A stretch of 64,000 nt of DNA from an uncultured Candidatus Saccharibacteria bacterium. GTDB lineage: Bacteria > Patescibacteriota > Minisyncoccia > UBA6257 > 2-01-FULL-56-20. The stretch is taken from positions 180,579-244,578 of the forward strand of contig CAYIOP010000001.1 of NCBI GenBank assembly GCA_964365185.1, read 5' to 3'. Within the stretch, counting starts at the first letter, position 1, and every line of letters begins with the position of its first letter. The position numbers were made by a program, and so were the translations under genes. A model generated the notes under the pieces. That model was not told where the DNA came from, did not search any database, and was given only the letters and a program-made list of their open reading frames with translations. Shown here piece by piece: positions 46,597 through 52,252 of the stretch.

Positions 46597-47784
46597 ATGG
46601 AAATCCTGGCCATCGAGACGAGTTGCGATGAAACAGCCTTGGCTTTAGTTCAGGCCGAAGGCGGCATTGCAAATCCGCGTTTTGAGGTTTTGAAAAGCGT
46701 GGTGGCTTCGCAGATTGCCGTACACCGGCCATTTGGGGGAGTTGTGCCTAACCTAGCTAAAAGAGAACACCTTAAAAATTTGCCAATATTGTTCGAGCAA
46801 ATTTTTAAAAATTATCAATTACCAATTTCCGATTTTTCAAAGAAATCTCAAAAAGATAAAAAGATGCGTGCTGTAGGATACGGGTTACAGGATGTAGATT
46901 TGATTGCGGTTACAGTGGGACCAGGGCTTGAGCCGGCGCTTTGGACGGGAATTAATTTTGCCAAAGAAATTGGCAAAGTTGGCAAATCGCCCTCCTTCGC
47001 CAAGGCTGCGGCGGGCAAGCAAATGGTAAATCGCAAAATTGTTGGAGCTAACCATCTGGAGGGCCACCTATATTCCTTTCTTTTGCCGAATCGATCTATA
47101 ACCTATAACCTAAAACCTAAAACCTTATTTCCGGCTGTTGCTTTGATTGTGAGTGGTGGACATACGGTTTTGTTGAAAATGGATAGTTTAGTGAAATGGG
47201 AAAAAATCGGAGAAACAAGAGATGACGCAGTGGGCGAGGCATTTGATAAGGTAGCGCGGCTTTTAGGACTCCCCTATCCGGGCGGACCGGAGATTGAAAA
47301 AATTGCCCAAAAAGGAAGCTCGACGTCTATAAATTTTCCAAGACCGATGATTTATGAGAAAAATTTTGATTTCAGTTTTTCGGGCCTGAAGACGGCGGTG
47401 CTTTATCACTTGCGTGATTTAGGATATAGCCATCAGCCACTAGCCACTGGGGTAAAAAAATTACTAAACCCTATACCCAAAACCCTAGTGGCTAATATAG
47501 CGGCGTCTTTTCAGGCGGCGGCAATTGAAGTTTTGGTTAAAAAAACAATGCGGGCGGCGCAAGAATTTGGCGCTAGGTCGGTTTTGCTCTCCGGTGGAGT
47601 GGCGGCCAACGCTTTTTTGCGAAATAGTTTAAAAAAATCGGCGAGTAAGGCCGGAGTTCAATTTTTAGTGGCGGATAAAAAATATAATACTGACAATGCG
47701 GTGATGATCGCGGCCGCCGGGTATATGACGTATTTACGCAAGAAAAAATACCCGTTTAAAGCAAACGGCAACCTTGAAATTTAA
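46597..47784 (+). CDS. tsaD: tRNA N6-adenosine threonylcarbamoyltransferase TsaD (Kae1/Gcp family)
   Basis: N-terminal ILAIETSCDETALAL and an ASKHA-fold sequence. Confidence 0.9.
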   Translation: MEILAIETSCDETALALVQAEGGIANPRFEVLKSVVASQIAVHRPFGGVVPNLAKREHLKNLPILFEQIFKNYQLPISDFSKKSQKDKKMRAVGYGLQDVDLIAVTVGPGLEPALWTGINFAKEIGKVGKSPSFAKAAAGKQMVNRKIVGANHLEGHLYSFLLPNRSITYNLKPKTLFPAVALIVSGGHTVLLKMDSLVKWEKIGETRDDAVGEAFDKVARLLGLPYPGGPEIEKIAQKGSSTSINFPRPMIYEKNFDFSFSGLKTAVLYHLRDLGYSHQPLATGVKKLLNPIPKTLVANIAASFQAAAIEVLVKKTMRAAQEFGARSVLLSGGVAANAFLRNSLKKSASKAGVQFLVADKKYNTDNAVMIAAAGYMTYLRKKKYPFKANGNLEI

Positions 47785-48264
47785 TCATTCCACTATAGAA
47801 GAATATTCATTTATAATGGAATAGAAAAAAGGTATGCTTTGGGCGAATGGGAATCTTTCTATTTAGAATTAAGAATTAGGAATAATGAATTAGGAGATAA
47901 TCTTATTGAAATTTCTGACTGGATTTTGTAGAATAATTTTGAAATCTTTCACTAGATTTCTCTGACTCCGTAGTGAGCGAAGTGCTACTTGCCTCTGTTC
48001 ATCTTACCCAGTTCCAAGTAGGTGTCTTACCAAATAATCCACCACTTTGCCATGACCTACGGGGTCTTTTTTTATTTCGATTAAATAGGTTGATTTTTAA
48101 AGATTGTTTCCTATAATGATTATGCTCCTTCTATGACAATAGTGGGAGTAAATTGTTTCTAGCACCCGGTGGGATGAAGTACAGATAGTCAACACTTCAT
48201 AACACCGGTGCTTTTTTATTTGATTGATTGGAAAACTTAAGAAAATTAAGTAAAATCATTAGAT

Positions 48265-51041
48265 ATGAGTGAACTTGGACCGAGATACGATCACAAAGAA
48301 ATTGAAGATAAGATTTATAAACTCTGGGAGAAATCCGGGTATTTCTCCGCCGAAGGCGGATCCGCCTCTGGCGGAAATCCTGATAAGCGCAAACCCTATT
48401 CAATAATTATGCCGCCGAATAATGCGAACGGCTCGCTGCATTTGGGGCACGCGGTAGGACTGACTTTGCAGGATATTTTAATTCGATACTGGCGGATGCA
48501 AGGTCGAAAAACGCTTTGGCTGCCGGGGGCGGATCACGCGGGATTTGAAACCCAGGTGGTGTATGACAAAAAACTGGATAAGGAAGGACGGAATAGATTT
48601 ACCATTCCCCGCGAGGAACTTTGGAGAGAAATTTGGGATTTTACACAGACCAACAAAAAATTGATGCAGGAGCAGACCAAGAAACTCGGAGCTTCTTGTG
48701 ATTGGTCGCGCGAGCGATTTACGCTGGACCCGGAAATTATAAAAGTCGTTTATGAGACCTTTGAACAGTTATATAAAGACGGCTTGGCTTACCGCGATTT
48801 AAAAGTGGTGAACTGGTGCCCTAAACATCGCACCGCGCTTTCGGATTTGGAAGTAAAATTTGTGGAGCAAGAAGACCCGCTTTATTTTATAAAATACGGA
48901 CCGCTTACGGTGGCGACAGTGCGTCCAGAGACGAAATTTGGCGACACAGGGCTCGCGGTTAATCCTAAAGACGCGCGATATAAAAAATATATAGGTAAGG
49001 AAATAGAGGCAACCGGAGTTTTGGGACCGCTTAAATTTAAAGTGATTGCGGATGAGGCGGTGGACCTAAAATTTGGCACGGGAGTGGTTAAAGTGACACC
49101 AGCACATGACCAGACGGACTTTGAAATTTGGCAAAGGCATAAAGATGAAATCCCGGGACCAAAGCAGATTATTGATGAGTTGGGGCGACTGATGACTAGT
49201 AGCGGACTCGGCGAGTACGGAGGGTTGAAAGTTATGGAAGCGCGGGAAAAGGTGGTGGAAGCAATGAAGCAAATTGGAATTTTAGAAAAAGTAGACCCGA
49301 ACTATAAACACCAAATCGCGACTTGTTATAAGTGTGGCAACACGCTTGAGCCATTGCCTAAGATGCAGTGGTTTATTCGTATGACTACTCAAGCTAAAAG
49401 CGAAAAGCTAAAAGCGAAAAGTAATGGAAAGTCGCTTAGGGATTTGGCGGTGGAGGCGGTTAAAAGCGGAAGGGTAAAATTTACGCCGAAGCGGGCGGAG
49501 AAAGTTTTCATGCACTGGATGAAAAATATTCGGGATTGGAACATATCGCGGCAGATTGTTTGGGGAATTCGGATTCCGGCGTGGTTTTGCGTTAGTTGTG
49601 GGAAAGAGAAAATTAATCCTCTTATAAAATCCAAGTGGTTTTTGGTGCGACACGGAGAAACGGATTGGAATGTTGAGGGAAGGGCAAATGGTCATACGGA
49701 TATACCGCTGAATAAAATAGGATTTCAACAAGCTAATATGGCCGCTGAAAAATTAAAAGGTGAAAATATTGATTTGGTTCTATGCTCAGATCTTAAACGA
49801 GCTTCTCAAACCGCAGAGATTATAGCTAAAAGATTAGGTGTTGAATTAATAATAGATAAAGATCTGAGAGAAAGAAACATGGGCGTTGTTGAAGGAATGT
49901 TAAGAGAGGAATGGAAACAAAAACATCCAAATATGTCAGAAAGTTTAGAAAGTAGGCCGCTAGACGGAGAAAGCTTAGGTGAATTACAAGATAGAATATT
50001 TAAAACTTTTAATAAGCACAAATCACAGCATAAACATAAAAATATTGTCCTAGTAACTCATGGCGGCTCAATTAGATCATTGTTAGGCAAACTCAGAAAT
50101 ATGAAATTTGAGGATTGGGCTCATTTACAGTCAAAAAATACCGAAATTTTTAAATTTGATATTAGCGAAGATTGTGGAAAATGTGGTTTAGATTTATACG
50201 AGCAAGACCCGGATGTTTTTGATACTTGGTTTTCGTCGGGGCAGTGGCCGTTCGCGACTCTAATGAGTCGTGAAAGTTCAAAGTTAAAAGCGAAAAGCGA
50301 AAAGTTGGGAAAGGACGATTTCAAAAATTTCTATCCGACGGATGTGATGGAAACGGGCTATGACATTTTGTTTTTCTGGGTGGCGAGGATGATTATGCTG
50401 GGGATTTACCGAACCGGCAAAGTGCCTTTTAAAAACGTCTACTTGCACGGACTAGTGCGCGACAAAGACCGGCAGAAGATGTCTAATCCAAAGGCAATGT
50501 GATTGACCCGCTGGGCGTAGCCGAGACCTACGGCACGGACGCGGTTAGAATGGCGCTCGTTGTTGGCAATACGCCCGGCAATGACATTGTGATTTCAGAG
50601 GACAAAATCCGCGGGTATCGAAATTTCGCCACGAAAATTTGGAACGTAGCCAGATTTGTGATGATGAACTCGCCCTCCAAAATTTTGCGGAGCAAAACTT
50701 GGGAGGGTAAACCTTCTTTCACTACGCAAGATAAAAAAGATTTAGCGGCGCTTAAGAAAATAAAAACACAAGTGGCTAACCATATTGAAAAATTCGAATT
50801 TCATTTGGCGAGTGAAAAAGCGTACCACTATTTCTGGCATACTTTGGCTGATAAAATAATCGAAGAGACCAAGCCTAGATTGAACAGGAAGGATTCGAAA
50901 GATGCGGCAGTGGCTTATTTTAAACTCGAGACCGTTTTGCTTGAGTCGTTAAAGATACTGCACCCTTTTATGCCGTATGTGACTGAAGAGATTTGGCAGA
51001 AATTTAGGCCGGGAACAATATTGATGATAGAAAAATACTAA
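48265..51041 (+). CDS. valS: Valyl-tRNA synthetase carrying a nested histidine-phosphatase domain and a -1 frameshift in the KMSKS codons
   Basis: Colinear with E. coli ValS: PPNNANGSLHLGHA, TLWLPGADHAGFETQVV, CP1 TVRPETKFGDTGLAVNP / GTGVVKVTPAHDQTDFEIWQRH, VFDTWFSSGQWPF, QKMSNP|KGNVIDPL, GYRNFATKIWNVARFVMMN. Reading frame 1 ends at 50502; the frame continues as 50488..51041. Confidence 0.85.
48344..48377 (+). repeat. Dispersed triple-palindrome repeat, copy E (in-frame inside valS, encoding AEGGSASGGN)
   Basis: TCTCCGCCGAAGGCGGATCCGCCTCTGGCGGAAAT. Confidence 0.65.
49642..50169 (+). other. Histidine phosphatase (phosphoglycerate-mutase-like, RHG motif) domain inserted in the ValS zinc knuckle
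   Basis: LVRHGETDWN...LVLCSDLKRASQTAEII...LVTHGGSIRSLL, ~176 aa. It is flanked by CVSCG (upstream) and CGKCG (downstream). Confidence 0.7.
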
Positions 51042-51048
51042 AAATACT

Positions 51049-51780
51049 ATGCTTATTTTAGCAATTATTTTAGGACTACTACCGGGATTTGCTTGGCTCA
51101 TTTTTTATTTTAAGGAAGATTTGCATCCAGAGCCCAAAAAATTAGTGGCGTTGGTTTTTATCGCGGGCGCGGGAATAACTTTATTGGCCTATATCTTTCA
51201 ATGCATTTCGTTTAAGGGATTTTTCCCAAGCGAGGGTTGCGGGCTGGGACTGGATGCGGCCATAGCCAACTCCCCTGTTTTAAAAGGGATACTTTTGATT
51301 CTTGTTCTTGCAGTAATTGAAGAAGTTTTGAAATTCGGAGCCGCATATTTAGTGGTCAATAAAAGCGCTAATTTTGACGAACCAGTGGACGCAATGATTT
51401 ATCCGGTGGTGGCGGCCTTGGGTTTTGCCACAGTCGAGAATTTCGCGGTAGCTTATCAACTATTACATACTGGAGGTTTAAATGGAGAAATAACATCGAT
51501 AGTTGGCGCGTTTAGAGCAATTTCTCTTAGATTTACCGGAGCTACCCTACTACATGCTTTAACTTCAGGAATAGTGGGTTATTTTTGGGCTAAATCCATA
51601 AGAAATTTTGAGAAAAAACGGATGATTTTTACCGGGTTAATACTGGCCACCGTGTTGCACGCGATTTTTAATTACCTTATAATTGAATTTGACGATCGAA
51701 TTTATACAGCTTTATTTCTGATTATTATTGGATTTTTTGTTATAGCTGATTTTGAAAAATTAAAGCGGCGAAAAATATAA
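51049..51780 (+). CDS. PrsW-family intramembrane protease-like protein
   Basis: Polytopic membrane protein with EEVLKFGAAY, FATVENF and LHAxxN-type motifs characteristic of the PrsW/CPBP-like family. Confidence 0.55.
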   Translation: MLILAIILGLLPGFAWLIFYFKEDLHPEPKKLVALVFIAGAGITLLAYIFQCISFKGFFPSEGCGLGLDAAIANSPVLKGILLILVLAVIEEVLKFGAAYLVVNKSANFDEPVDAMIYPVVAALGFATVENFAVAYQLLHTGGLNGEITSIVGAFRAISLRFTGATLLHALTSGIVGYFWAKSIRNFEKKRMIFTGLILATVLHAIFNYLIIEFDDRIYTALFLIIIGFFVIADFEKLKRRKI

Positions 51781-51781
51781 A

Positions 51782-52252
51782 ATGAATAACTCCGAAGAAA
51801 AATTTTTTGAGGAATATGCGGAACACAACGCCAACGAAGGAGAGGCGGAATTAGTGGGCGCCAATACCCTAAATAGCAAAATGAAAGTGAATTCTAAAAA
51901 AGCCGAATTAGAAATCGATTCCGAACCAGAAGGCCAGCTCACAATTGACGTCTATCAAACGCCAACGGAAATAGTGGTTGAGTCGGCGGTGGCTGGAGTG
52001 AGCCCTGATGACTTAGACATTAATGTGACCGCGGATTCGGTATCGATTGTGGGCCGAAGAAAAAGAGAAAAACAAGTGAGCGAAGAAAATTATATTTACC
52101 AAGAATGTTACTGGGGCAAATTTTCGCGATCAATAATTCTCCCCCAGGAAGTTGATCCGGATGAAGCATCGGTTGATTTTAAAAATGGAATTCTTTCTAT
52201 CCACTTGCCAAAACTTAACCGTAAAAAAGCTAAGAAATTAAAGGTAGGGTAA
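51782..52252 (+). CDS. Hsp20/alpha-crystallin family small heat-shock protein
   Basis: Alpha-crystallin domain (…GILSIHLPK) ~90 aa from the C-terminus. Confidence 0.85.
   Translation: MNNSEEKFFEEYAEHNANEGEAELVGANTLNSKMKVNSKKAELEIDSEPEGQLTIDVYQTPTEIVVESAVAGVSPDDLDINVTADSVSIVGRRKREKQVSEENYIYQECYWGKFSRSIILPQEVDPDEASVDFKNGILSIHLPKLNRKKAKKLKVG

Follow-up and report, generated by a model that had tools for sequence, protein, structure and literature searches.

We found that the valyl-tRNA synthetase (ValRS) gene in the window (the whole 64,000-nt stretch of DNA that was analysed) encodes a synthetase with a histidine phosphatase domain nested between the two cysteine pairs of its CP3 zinc knuckle, and that knuckle and domain together form one cassette that close relatives carry, replace or lack. 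In the reading that we favour, and to which we give a probability of roughly 55%, this is an accessory, exchanged and catalytically active phosphatase cassette. Few known enzymes are as strongly conserved as aminoacyl-tRNA synthetases, and any additional domains in them tend to be old and stably kept. Unusually for an essential synthetase, this one has a whole further enzyme within a zinc-binding surface loop, and the loop acts as a cassette slot: near-identical ValRS differ in the domain found there, domains pass from lineage to lineage, and one now exists as an independent gene after escape. Should the phosphatase work on tRNA termini or on nucleotides of the synthetase, it would provide a new coupling of tRNA quality control to charging in CPR bacteria, which are reduced and depend on hosts. 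Should it have nothing to do with charging, the protein would be a natural example of domain insertion and exchange in an essential protein with function kept, and the locus would mark a permissive site for class Ia synthetase engineering.

The full valS gene lies at 48265..51041 on the plus strand and comprises 925 codons after one base is restored. Its first frame (48265..50502, +) encodes a class Ia synthetase (Pfam PF00133, E=2.8e-104), and a frame-shifted continuation (50499..51041, +) encodes the remainder of the catalytic domain together with the anticodon-binding domain (PF08264, E=1.8e-23). The reference for colinearity was Thermus ValRS (1gax) and not E. coli ValRS. When searched against the PDB with phmmer, residues 4-447 aligned with residues 3-422 of T. 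thermophilus 1gax and residues 635-743 with its residues 436-533, a gap that corresponds to ~174 extra residues in place of a 13-residue stretch. The product contains a HIGH-type motif (NANGSLHLGHA) and, within the region aligned to 1gax, the CP1 editing motif GTGVVKVTPAHD; its CP1 editing and anticodon-binding domains are both present and colinear with this solved ValRS, which was also the best Foldseek match of the predicted structure (TM 0.71/0.76). An intact protein, P0241, which is 2 aa off the repaired window protein (~99.8-99.9% identical), scores above the NCBIfam valS equivalog cutoffs (NF004349, 803.3 bits vs a cutoff of 704; TIGR00422, 772 vs 612.1). The gene is identified as the ValRS gene of a Parcubacteria/Paceibacteria (CPR) bacterium, and its body is complete once the 1-nt lesion is mended. 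The C-terminal coiled-coil model PF10458 (Pfam) had no match in Paceibacteria ValRS, and Rfam and tRNA scans of the window returned nothing relevant adjoining valS. At NCBI, such ValRS proteins are labelled only 'class I tRNA ligase family protein', so valS may seem to be missing from these genomes.

The lesion, which the earlier note does not mention, is a 1-nt deletion in the KMSKS motif (50476..50502, +), located at 50485-50487 ('TCT-AATCC'), which makes the motif read KMSNPKAM followed by a stop and ends the reading frame at 50502; putting one A back yields KMSKSKGNVIDP in its place. An independent assembly, contig L009 (ENA ERZ1292626), is 99.88% identical to the window over 3427 nt spanning both junctions of the insert. 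This contig reads TCTAAATCCAAGGGC where the window reads TCT-AATCCAAAGGC, and its KMSKS motif is intact as KMSKSKGNVIDP. The two sequences are separated by 3 mismatches and 1 gap in these 3427 nt, and one mismatch lies 8 nt from the gap, suggesting a local sequence error, which the deletion probably is. A programmed frameshift at KMSKS was ruled out by the plain in-frame sequence of L009 and by this second difference 8 nt away. Apparently split ValRS genes in contigs L002 and L003 were set aside as belonging to indel-rich long-read contigs, a judgement made from contig naming and multiple breaks only. The frameshift within KMSKS, together with a composition break between the cassette and its flanks, could be taken as the mark of a mis-assembly or of a decaying valS pseudogene, in which case the insert would be biologically meaningless. 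This is very improbable, because the nearly identical L009 has the same junctions and an intact motif, because the architecture is common to many independent assemblies, and because the lesion is single, with no other stop or frameshift in the 925 codons. A chimera, a risk raised in the earlier note, is contradicted already by L009 and by dozens of independent assemblies, all of which share both junctions.

The insert had been assigned to the histidine phosphatase superfamily from the motifs LVRHGETDW, SDLKRASQTA and VTHGGSIR. All three are present in the valS product, and the assignment is borne out by Pfam, where positions 49642-50169 alone match with E=4.8e-54. On the full product, the His_Phos_1 domain covers aa 459-637 (49639..50175, +; PF00300, E=2.3e-54), with 184.4 bits vs a gathering cutoff of 21.7 and a match to profile positions 2-185 of 194. 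That the insert forms a folded domain, as was also proposed, agrees with the AlphaFold2 model, in which predicted confidence is high over the insert (pLDDT 94-98) and over the full protein (pLDDT 91.1, pTM 0.89), and in which short strands (439-442, 448-450 and 644-647) flank the phosphatase domain. The closest solved relatives of the insert (phmmer against the PDB) are PhoE, CobC, PspA and PGM-family phosphatases. None of the NCBIfam equivalog cutoffs was reached by the domain: the best-scoring model, CobC alpha-ribazole phosphatase (TIGR03162), gave 131.3 bits (cutoff 162.9), dPGM (TIGR01258) gave 65.9 bits (cutoff 81.7) over residues 1-97 only, and the other dPGM equivalogs were far under cutoff. 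As classified by sequence, the insert is a branch-1 histidine phosphatase of the short PhoE/CobC/GpmB/PspA type.

The catalytic RHG triplet predicted by homology and alignment consists of R462, the putative nucleophile H463 and G464 (49648..49656, +), and the rest of the predicted catalytic core of R512 (49798-49800, +), E536 (49870-49872, +) and H599 (50059-50061, +). In our cassette alignment (A3), R22, H23, G24, R72, E96 and H159 are invariant. Across 79 aligned ValRS-embedded homologues, the successive R, H, R, E and H are conserved in 78, 79, 79, 74 and 79 sequences, respectively. Catalytic losses are confined to a few homologues: P0255 reads RYG, P0345 reads HHG, and Gly replaces the catalytic Glu in 5/79. 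We consider the embedded phosphatase likely to be catalytically active.

The two CxxC pairs of the ValRS zinc knuckle do flank the insert, as the earlier note had it, with C442/C445 (49588..49599, +) before and C637/C640 (50173..50184, +) after it. Both are found at the knuckle positions of Thermus ValRS, the second pair aligning with the second Thermus pair; in A3, C5, C197 and C200 are invariant and C2 is at least 90% conserved. Zinc binding itself is predicted, and this putative four-cysteine knuckle clamps both ends of the phosphatase. The replaceable CP3 cassette extends from C442 to E646 (205 residues; 49588..50202, +) and is laid out as an N-terminal CxxC, the histidine phosphatase and a C-terminal CxxCG-x-D-x-Y-E. 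Three closely related ValRS pairs share its boundaries, directly after PAWF and directly before QDPDV, and these boundaries also hold at the DNA level. The proposal that a domain had been spliced into a pre-existing knuckle thus survives in part: the nesting is in-frame and intein-free, but the knuckle is not a fixed element of the host, because the cysteines travel with the domain as one cassette. What is new here is the unit, a swappable cassette of zinc knuckle plus domain with fixed boundaries.

The earlier note knew of no ValRS with this architecture, a view that the survey overturns: PF00300 is present in 86 of the 120 closest ValRS clusters (~70%), and ~59 of the best 80 GTDB loci (species representatives; Parcubacteria/Paceibacteria, CPR) have the ValRS-embedded cassette. 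A literature search found no paper on a ValRS with a His_Phos insert, the nearest being one sentence on an SR1 IleRS (PMC3812714).

One and the same site in CP3 has at least six interchangeable occupants: His_Phos; an ASCH fold; ASCH plus His_Phos; two unassigned domains, X1 and X2; plain Cys knuckles; and an 18-residue loop without cysteines. The ASCH/PUA-like beta-barrel fold was found in the alternative or companion cassette of relatives, outside the window. ValRS bodies that are 85-94% identical hold differing occupants. Body identities (N-/C-terminal) are 92/90% between P0250 (histidine phosphatase, HP) and P0289 (28-aa knuckle), 94/90% between P0243 (HP) and P0286 (X1), 89/99% between P0254 (HP) and P0334 (X1), and 89/92% between P0335 and P0356 (ASCH). 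Syntenic DNA is 85-98% identical between relatives, with the exception of the cassette, and close relatives have the same locus (TsaD-valS-PrsW-HSP20) with a phosphatase-free ValRS, indicating that the cassette is accessory and stands outside the aminoacylation machinery. That it is a real, expressed accessory cassette we regard as almost certain.

Body and cassette identities are correlated with an r of only 0.18, and bodies that are 90-92% identical carry cassettes that are 49-69% identical. When the most similar host (at least 80% identical) is taken for each ValRS, its cassette is also the most similar one in only 16% of cases, at a median rank of 8 of 77. P0302 and P0310, for instance, have bodies 87% identical and cassettes 42% identical, and the cassette most like that of P0302 (66%) is housed in a body with just 64% identity. 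A fast-evolving insert under simple vertical inheritance is not enough to explain this, since cassettes are often closest to those in distant hosts; as far as sequence comparison can tell, cassette phylogeny is decoupled from host phylogeny. Composition differs as well: third-position GC is 0.25 in the cassette vs 0.50 in the host gene, and four other loci show the same direction. In trees built by neighbour-joining on BLOSUM distances, which carry no support values, the ValRS-embedded phosphatases and a free-standing 'knuckle + phosphatase' clade cluster together and separately from ordinary histidine phosphatases, suggesting that a single founding insertion later diversified, was exchanged and escaped at least once. 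The free-standing genes coincide exactly with the cassette unit (knuckle plus phosphatase); the unit is preceded by IIMPNYFC, which resembles the IRIPAWFC of ValRS, and ends in CGGDLYE. Homologous recombination within the flanks, which hardly vary (ISRQIVWGIRIPAWF on the upstream and QDPDVFDTWFSS on the downstream side), would be the route of cassette exchange, a mechanism that we infer from mosaic identity and composition.

Other types of mobile element were considered. An intein or self-splicing element was rejected, as the full ORF had no Hint or intein match in Pfam and no terminal splicing residues (GLDLYE runs directly into QDPD). A search of 49400-50400 for repeats, looking for transposon-like terminal repeats or a target duplication, returned only short matches at the junctions. 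The one repeat of note, a heptamer array, lies clear of the cassette edges, ~170-200 nt ahead of the cassette and 80 nt past it.

CP3 could also be a permissive loop in which domains delivered by illegitimate recombination are tolerated as passengers of an essential, well-expressed gene and turn over neutrally, with no ValRS-dependent benefit. Several features speak for this: occupants are many and unrelated, and none at all is among the states found; solved IleRS structures already differ from one another in CP3 topology (PMC7191050); the cassettes change far more rapidly than the body and have AT-rich third positions, as under weak constraint; and catalytic residues are lost now and then. 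Set against this, the catalytic R, H, R and H persist in 78-79/79 despite a mean pairwise identity of 45% among embedded phosphatases, the same clade recurs at several ValRS and IleRS sites with up to 4 copies per protein, which random passengers would not do, and ~70% of the closest ValRS clusters have the cassette. Neutral tolerance is, in our view, rather unlikely.

In the accessory-phosphatase reading that we prefer, the ValRS body would charge tRNA-Val as usual, and the tethered domain would be an autonomous phosphomonoesterase that uses a phospho-histidine mechanism via R462-H463/R512/E536/H599. Its substrate would most likely be a nucleotide-derived or RNA-terminal phosphate and not a glycolytic intermediate. 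Two associations point in this direction: the phosphatase clade was inserted repeatedly in ValRS and IleRS (up to 4 copies), exclusively in class Ia synthetases among the multidomain hosts tested, and the inserts that replace or accompany it have folds directed at nucleosides or nucleotides (ASCH here, Nudix in the SR1 IleRS). Judged purely from such domain associations, a nucleotide- or tRNA-related substrate has about even odds, and the tRNA 3' end in particular is an improbable candidate. The net charge of embedded phosphatases is ~6 units above that of the free-standing clade (pI 7.6 vs 5.9), which weakly supports the preferred reading. The existence of free-standing copies and of cassette-free ValRS indicates that neither needs the other, and a substrate unrelated to aminoacylation fits equally well. 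The domain may be a moonlighting or regulatory phosphatase, as the earlier note suggested.

A more specific possibility is that the cassettes form a conflict or repair module which, tethered by the acceptor-end side, acts on damaged or toxin-modified tRNA or synthetase. Such a module might remove 3'-phosphate or pyrophosphate from the CCA end after attack by tRNases or toxSAS, or undo phosphorylation of the synthetase by kinase toxins, and the turnover of cassettes would then be an arms race. This would account for the very fast turnover and lateral exchange at one site of an essential gene and for the recurrent insertion in class Ia synthetases; it is also consistent with the ASCH fold of the alternative cassette, which is reported to bind RNA or nucleosides, and with the more positive charge of the embedded copies. 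The histidine phosphatase superfamily includes protein phosphatases, such as PGAM5 and Sts-1, and SixA is a weak NCBIfam match of the domain. However, the PADLOC defence models matched neither the embedded nor the free-standing cassette, no toxin genes adjoin valS in the loci examined, free-standing copies work without a tRNA-binding scaffold, and we know of no histidine phosphatase that acts on RNA ends. On balance, we hold a conflict or repair role to be possible but not likely. Somewhat more doubtful is a general form of the idea, in which CP3 of Paceibacteria ValRS and the equivalent sites of CPR IleRS would be a dedicated docking slot for horizontally exchanged cassettes (His_Phos, ASCH, Nudix and others) whose targets would be the acceptor end of tRNA or nucleotides bound by the synthetase, as a modular, fast-evolving layer of tRNA repair or counter-defence within an essential translation enzyme; cassettes of this kind would, for example, strip toxin-installed or damage-derived terminal phosphates ahead of charging.

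Finally, the phosphatase fold might serve as an allosteric sensor that binds a phospho-metabolite (a nucleotide, for example, or a sugar phosphate), whether or not it turns the ligand over, its occupancy being relayed through a rigid zinc knuckle to the second Rossmann half so that ValRS is tuned to the metabolic state. In favour of this, the pTM of 0.89 in the predicted model suggests a defined rather than floppy domain arrangement. Nevertheless, close relatives have no cassette or unrelated domains at the same point, the full catalytic set is kept where binding residues alone would do, and free-standing versions exist, all of which makes a sensor quite improbable.

Among the closest known systems, with the CP3 zinc-binding subdomain of T. 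thermophilus IleRS, is Thermus ValRS (1GAX/1IVS), which has the same domain order and its CxxC pairs at the same place, between 'WG.RIP.W' and 'D.(F/L)DTWFSS'; only ~13-17 residues separate its cysteine pairs, vs 191 here, a complete enzyme domain. A precedent is the SR1 IleRS, of which Kantor 2013 (mBio) states in one sentence that PGM domains interrupt it, without analysis of function, distribution or turnover (PMC3812714). It is likewise a class Ia synthetase of a CPR bacterium with in-frame His_Phos (PGM-family) insertions, and it differs in being an IleRS type 2 with DUF5915, in its lineage, in its extra insertion sites and in its Nudix partner (PMC3812714). Our profile search recovered IleRS with two His_Phos domains, one of them at the start of CP3 or within the CP3 CxxC knuckle, and in an exhaustive profile search all 8 long top matches were class Ia synthetases with 2-4 His_Phos domains, 5 of them IleRS with DUF5915.

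Among short histidine phosphatases, PhoE/YhfR (1EBB, 1H2E), CobC (TIGR03162; 6E4B, 2ENW), PspA (4IJ5) and GpmB are the best structure or NCBIfam sequence matches. They share the R-H-G, R, E and H set and a length of ~175-210 aa; the domain described here is instead embedded, has Cys4-clamped termini, and its C-terminal hairpin is cut to one strand running into the CxxC. The Mycobacterium Rv2228c-type RNase H/CobC-like proteins (NF005567, the third-best NCBIfam match of the phosphatase at 103 bits, far under the cutoff of 326) have a phosphatase of the same subfamily fused to a nucleic-acid enzyme, but the fusion is end-to-end, as opposed to a nested insertion, and the partner is unrelated. Inteins and other mobile in-frame insertions resemble the cassette in that they occupy a fixed and conserved position in an essential protein, are present or absent between close relatives, have a host-decoupled phylogeny and differ in composition. 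In contrast to inteins, the cassette lacks a Hint or homing-endonuclease domain, ends in DLYE before Q where an intein would have His-Asn ahead of Cys/Ser/Thr, and is predicted to persist as a folded enzyme once the protein is mature. Nested domains are known to be hosted by the connective-polypeptide region of class I synthetases (PMC13114784). Extra enzyme domains of synthetases include that of the NF040702 IleRS (N-acetyltransferase domain-containing) and, as the classical nested insert, the CP1 editing domain; such inserts are fixed within a lineage, whereas the cassettes described here are alternatives that are swapped between near-identical hosts.

The valS frame of the window (48265..50502, plus strand, 745 aa) encodes a class Ia aminoacyl-tRNA synthetase (PF00133, E=2.8e-104) that contains a histidine phosphatase domain (His_Phos_1, PF00300; aa 459-637, plus strand; E=2.3e-54, 184 bits vs a cutoff of 21.7), and its continuation in another frame (50499..51041, plus strand) carries the anticodon-binding domain (PF08264, E=1.8e-23). 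In a search of PDB sequences, residues 3-422 of Thermus thermophilus ValRS (1gax) aligned with window aa 4-447 and residues 436-533 with aa 635-743, leaving ~174 extra residues vs 13 in Thermus between the two CxxC pairs (C442-x-x-C445 and C637-x-x-C640, plus strand). An earlier note had placed a histidine phosphatase inside the ValS knuckle at 49642-50169, and the observation holds at those coordinates, far above chance: this segment alone matched PF00300 (E=4.8e-54). AlphaFold2 (103-sequence alignment; mean pLDDT 91.1, pTM 0.89) folded the insert confidently (pLDDT 94-98), with short strands on either side (439-442, 448-450 and 644-647). The best structural match of the model was 1gax.

The frame terminates at 50502 because one base is absent within the KMSKS codons (…AAG ATG TCT AA- TCC…, window 50476-50502), a break that the earlier note had overlooked; an artefact or a pseudogene is one rival reading of the locus. 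Restoring a single A yields a 925-aa ValRS, and a search with this repaired protein retrieved P0241, a homologue of 925 aa that differs by 2 residues and scores above both NCBIfam valS equivalog cutoffs. The contig encoding P0241 (L009), which comes from a separate assembly (ENA ERZ1292626), is 99.88% identical over 3427 nt, covers both junctions and has TCTAAATCCAAGGGC in place of the window TCT-AATCCAAAGGC; a second difference (G/A) lies 8 nt downstream of the deletion. Since L009 is nearly identical and its KMSKS undamaged, valS exists in intact form, and the simplest reading of the window lesion is a local sequence error rather than a pseudogene; the lesion may also be a very recent mutation. 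In two further loci (L002 and L003, ENA ERZ25039512), valS is spread over several ORFs, probably through indel errors of long-read assembly, and broken copies of this kind swell the database count of "partial" synthetase proteins.

The window protein and its 120 nearest relatives were aligned, and the stretch between "…RIPAWF" and "QDPDVFDTWFSS…" was compared. The content of the site falls into discrete forms: a histidine phosphatase only (84 proteins, the window protein included), a phosphatase after a second ~105-aa, ASCH-fold domain (2 proteins), the ~105-aa ASCH-fold domain alone (4 proteins), a related variant of it (1 protein), an insert termed X1 (2 proteins), another termed X2 (1 protein), and short forms (27 proteins) that are either an 18-aa loop without Cys or Cys knuckles of 28, 29, 35 or 39 aa. 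X1 (P0286 and P0334; L008 3868-4158, L011 4273-4562) and X2 (P0355) are ~100 aa each, with no Pfam match and no cysteines. Different occupants are found in nearly identical hosts, as seen from the N-/C-terminal body identities of P0243 (phosphatase) and P0286 (X1; 94%/90%), P0250 (phosphatase) and P0289 (28-aa knuckle; 92%/90%), P0254 (phosphatase) and P0334 (X1; 89%/99%), and P0335 (29-aa knuckle) and P0356 (ASCH; 89%/92%). Residue by residue, identity in the first three pairs ends exactly after PAWF and returns exactly at QDPDV, and the knuckle cysteines are therefore part of the exchanged unit. At the DNA level, two pairs of syntenic TsaD-valS-PrsW-HSP20 loci share 81-98% identity except in the cassette, where there is no similarity; in one pair, identity is 81% upstream of the cassette and steps up to 97.7% on its downstream side, a recombination signature at or near the site. 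Altogether, the data show CP3 to be a hotspot whose occupants are interchangeable and are exchanged laterally. The TsaD - valS - PrsW-like protease - HSP20 order is kept regardless of the cassette (window 46597-52252; L001, L003, L007, L008, L010 and L011), with a TsaD product that is 395 aa long in the window and ranges over 342-463 aa.

To compare cassette and host histories, 79 embedded phosphatases were re-aligned separately. Phosphatase and ValRS body identities were poorly correlated (r=0.18), and bodies 90-92% identical carried phosphatases only 49-69% identical. The nearest host (at least 80% identical) also held the nearest phosphatase in only 16% of cases, with a median rank of 8 of 77. 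For example, body identity between P0302 and P0310 is 87% and cassette identity 42%, and the closest cassette to that of P0302 (66%) resides in P0274, whose body identity is 64%. Fast evolution alone as the cause of this decoupling is ruled out, because it cannot place the closest cassettes in distant hosts, and cassettes must thus be exchanged. Composition agrees: third-position GC is 0.249 in the window cassette vs 0.505 in the rest of valS, and the contrast has the same direction in four other loci, for phosphatase and X1 cassettes alike. The other 37 window genes average 0.368 (sd 0.045, maximum 0.449). The valS body (48265-51041) exceeds them all, reaching 0.58-0.67 in codons 661-810, so the host gene itself looks compositionally foreign or mosaic beyond the cassette. 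A repeat search over 49400-50400 gave only short matches at the cassette junctions, with neither terminal repeats nor target duplications; exchange would proceed by homologous recombination in the flanks, which are nearly invariant.

The heptamer AAAAGC(G/T) forms short arrays at 49390-49421 and 50280-50304 and nowhere else in the 64 kb (5 matches vs 0.44 expected). Both lie within valS, one ~170-200 nt upstream of the cassette and the other ~80 nt downstream of it. The arrays encode the K/S-rich loops AKSEKLKAKS and KLKAKSEKL; the second loop varies in length in homologues and corresponds in position to a second His_Phos insertion in the IleRS-like P0386. Upstream of valS, a 480-nt ORF-free gap (47785-48264) contains no tRNA and no Rfam family at the gathering threshold.

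In a neighbour-joining tree, computed without support values, eight free-standing proteins of 211-218 aa (P0046, P0053, P0061, P0080 and P0121-P0124) group with the ValRS-embedded phosphatases, separately from ordinary histidine phosphatases, and form a single clade nested among the embedded copies. Mean identity is 0.45 within this joint group and 0.31-0.36 to ordinary histidine phosphatases. The free-standing proteins are the exact cassette (CxxCG, phosphatase, CxxCGGDLYE), encoded away from valS (L004 8001-8636, L005 4762-5397, L006 4204-4845, L033 and L064). The frame upstream of one of these genes reads IIMPNYFC, an echo of the ValRS flank IRIPAWFC and the only ValRS remnant found near them; their neighbourhoods are unrelated to valS. 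We read this as a single founding insertion that then diversified and, at least once, escaped to become a separate gene. The gene directly downstream of the free-standing cassette in L004 and L005 is annotated as AcrVA2-like (PF26125).

The embedded domain has the superfamily catalytic set, R462, H463, R512, E536 and H599, kept in 78, 79, 79, 74 and 79 of the 79 embedded homologues, respectively, despite a mean pairwise identity of ~45%. The exceptions are P0255 (RYG) and P0345 (HHG), whose cassettes may be inactive, and five with Gly replacing Glu; the cassettes of P0257 and P0333 belong to another His_Phos-like type (FVHGTTTDNE), which lacks the RHG arginine and has no cysteines. From this conservation we infer an active, autonomous accessory enzyme, the rival readings being a neutral passenger, which the few altered active sites would fit, and an allosteric sensor. 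Its closest relatives of known structure are short phosphatases rather than mutases (PGM-family 9mmh, PspA 4ij5, PhoE 1ebb/1h2e and CobC). Every NCBIfam equivalog threshold was missed (CobC 131 vs 163, dPGM TIGR01258 66 vs 82), and the domain is therefore filed as a branch-1 histidine phosphatase without equivalog.

An exhaustive search of the cassette profile against 1.84 billion representatives gave 2937 matches at E<=1e-30. Eight long proteins among the top matches were examined, and every one is a class Ia synthetase that carries two to four His_Phos domains: five are type-2 IleRS (DUF5915; P0371, P0375, P0379, P0381 and P0464) with two copies each, and one ValRS-like protein has four. P0361 and P0386 also belong to this multi-copy class. 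Insertion sites include the CP3 start, a CP3 CxxC knuckle, the loop that follows DCWFESG…YPF, and CP2. By association, the repeated independent pairing of this phosphatase clade with ValRS and IleRS, together with the ASCH and Nudix (SR1) inserts, favours a substrate that would be nucleotide- or tRNA-related. Relative to their free-standing sister clade (pI 5.9), embedded phosphatases (pI 7.6) are also more positive by about six charges, which weakly supports such a substrate. A tRNA-repair or counter-toxin module is a rival reading; PADLOC defence models matched neither the embedded nor the free-standing cassette.

The cassette, seated in the zinc knuckle of CP3 in an otherwise complete ValRS, is real, widespread and folded, with intact active-site residues. 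A phosphatase occupies this site in 86 of the 120 closest clusters of ValRS proteins; their NCBI names are Candidatus Liptonbacteria, Wolfebacteria, Paceibacterota or Parcubacteria, and their annotation reads simply "class I tRNA ligase family protein". When one genome per GTDB species was scanned, ~59 of the best 80 loci were knuckle-bearing copies embedded in ValRS; the genomes concerned go by the names Liptonbacteria, Sungbacteria, Moranbacteria, Kaiserbacteria, Colwellbacteria and Portnoybacteria, among others. With these numbers the architecture is well represented publicly, whereas the earlier note knew of no such ValS. The searchable literature yielded nothing on a ValRS with a nested phosphatase, and the case, plentiful in databases, is apparently undescribed. 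The nearest published statement is one sentence on PGM-family interruptions of the IleRS of a CPR lineage, SR1, where a Nudix insert is also reported (Kantor et al., 2013, PMC3812714); the multi-copy synthetases are probably the proteins behind that remark. That class I synthetases host nested domains in their connective polypeptide is already known (PMC13114784). What is new, as far as we can tell, is the behaviour of the cassette (fixed boundaries, alternative occupants in near-identical hosts, a decoupled phylogeny and an escaped gene), together with the ASCH domain as an alternative occupant and the IleRS and ValRS relatives that hold several copies.
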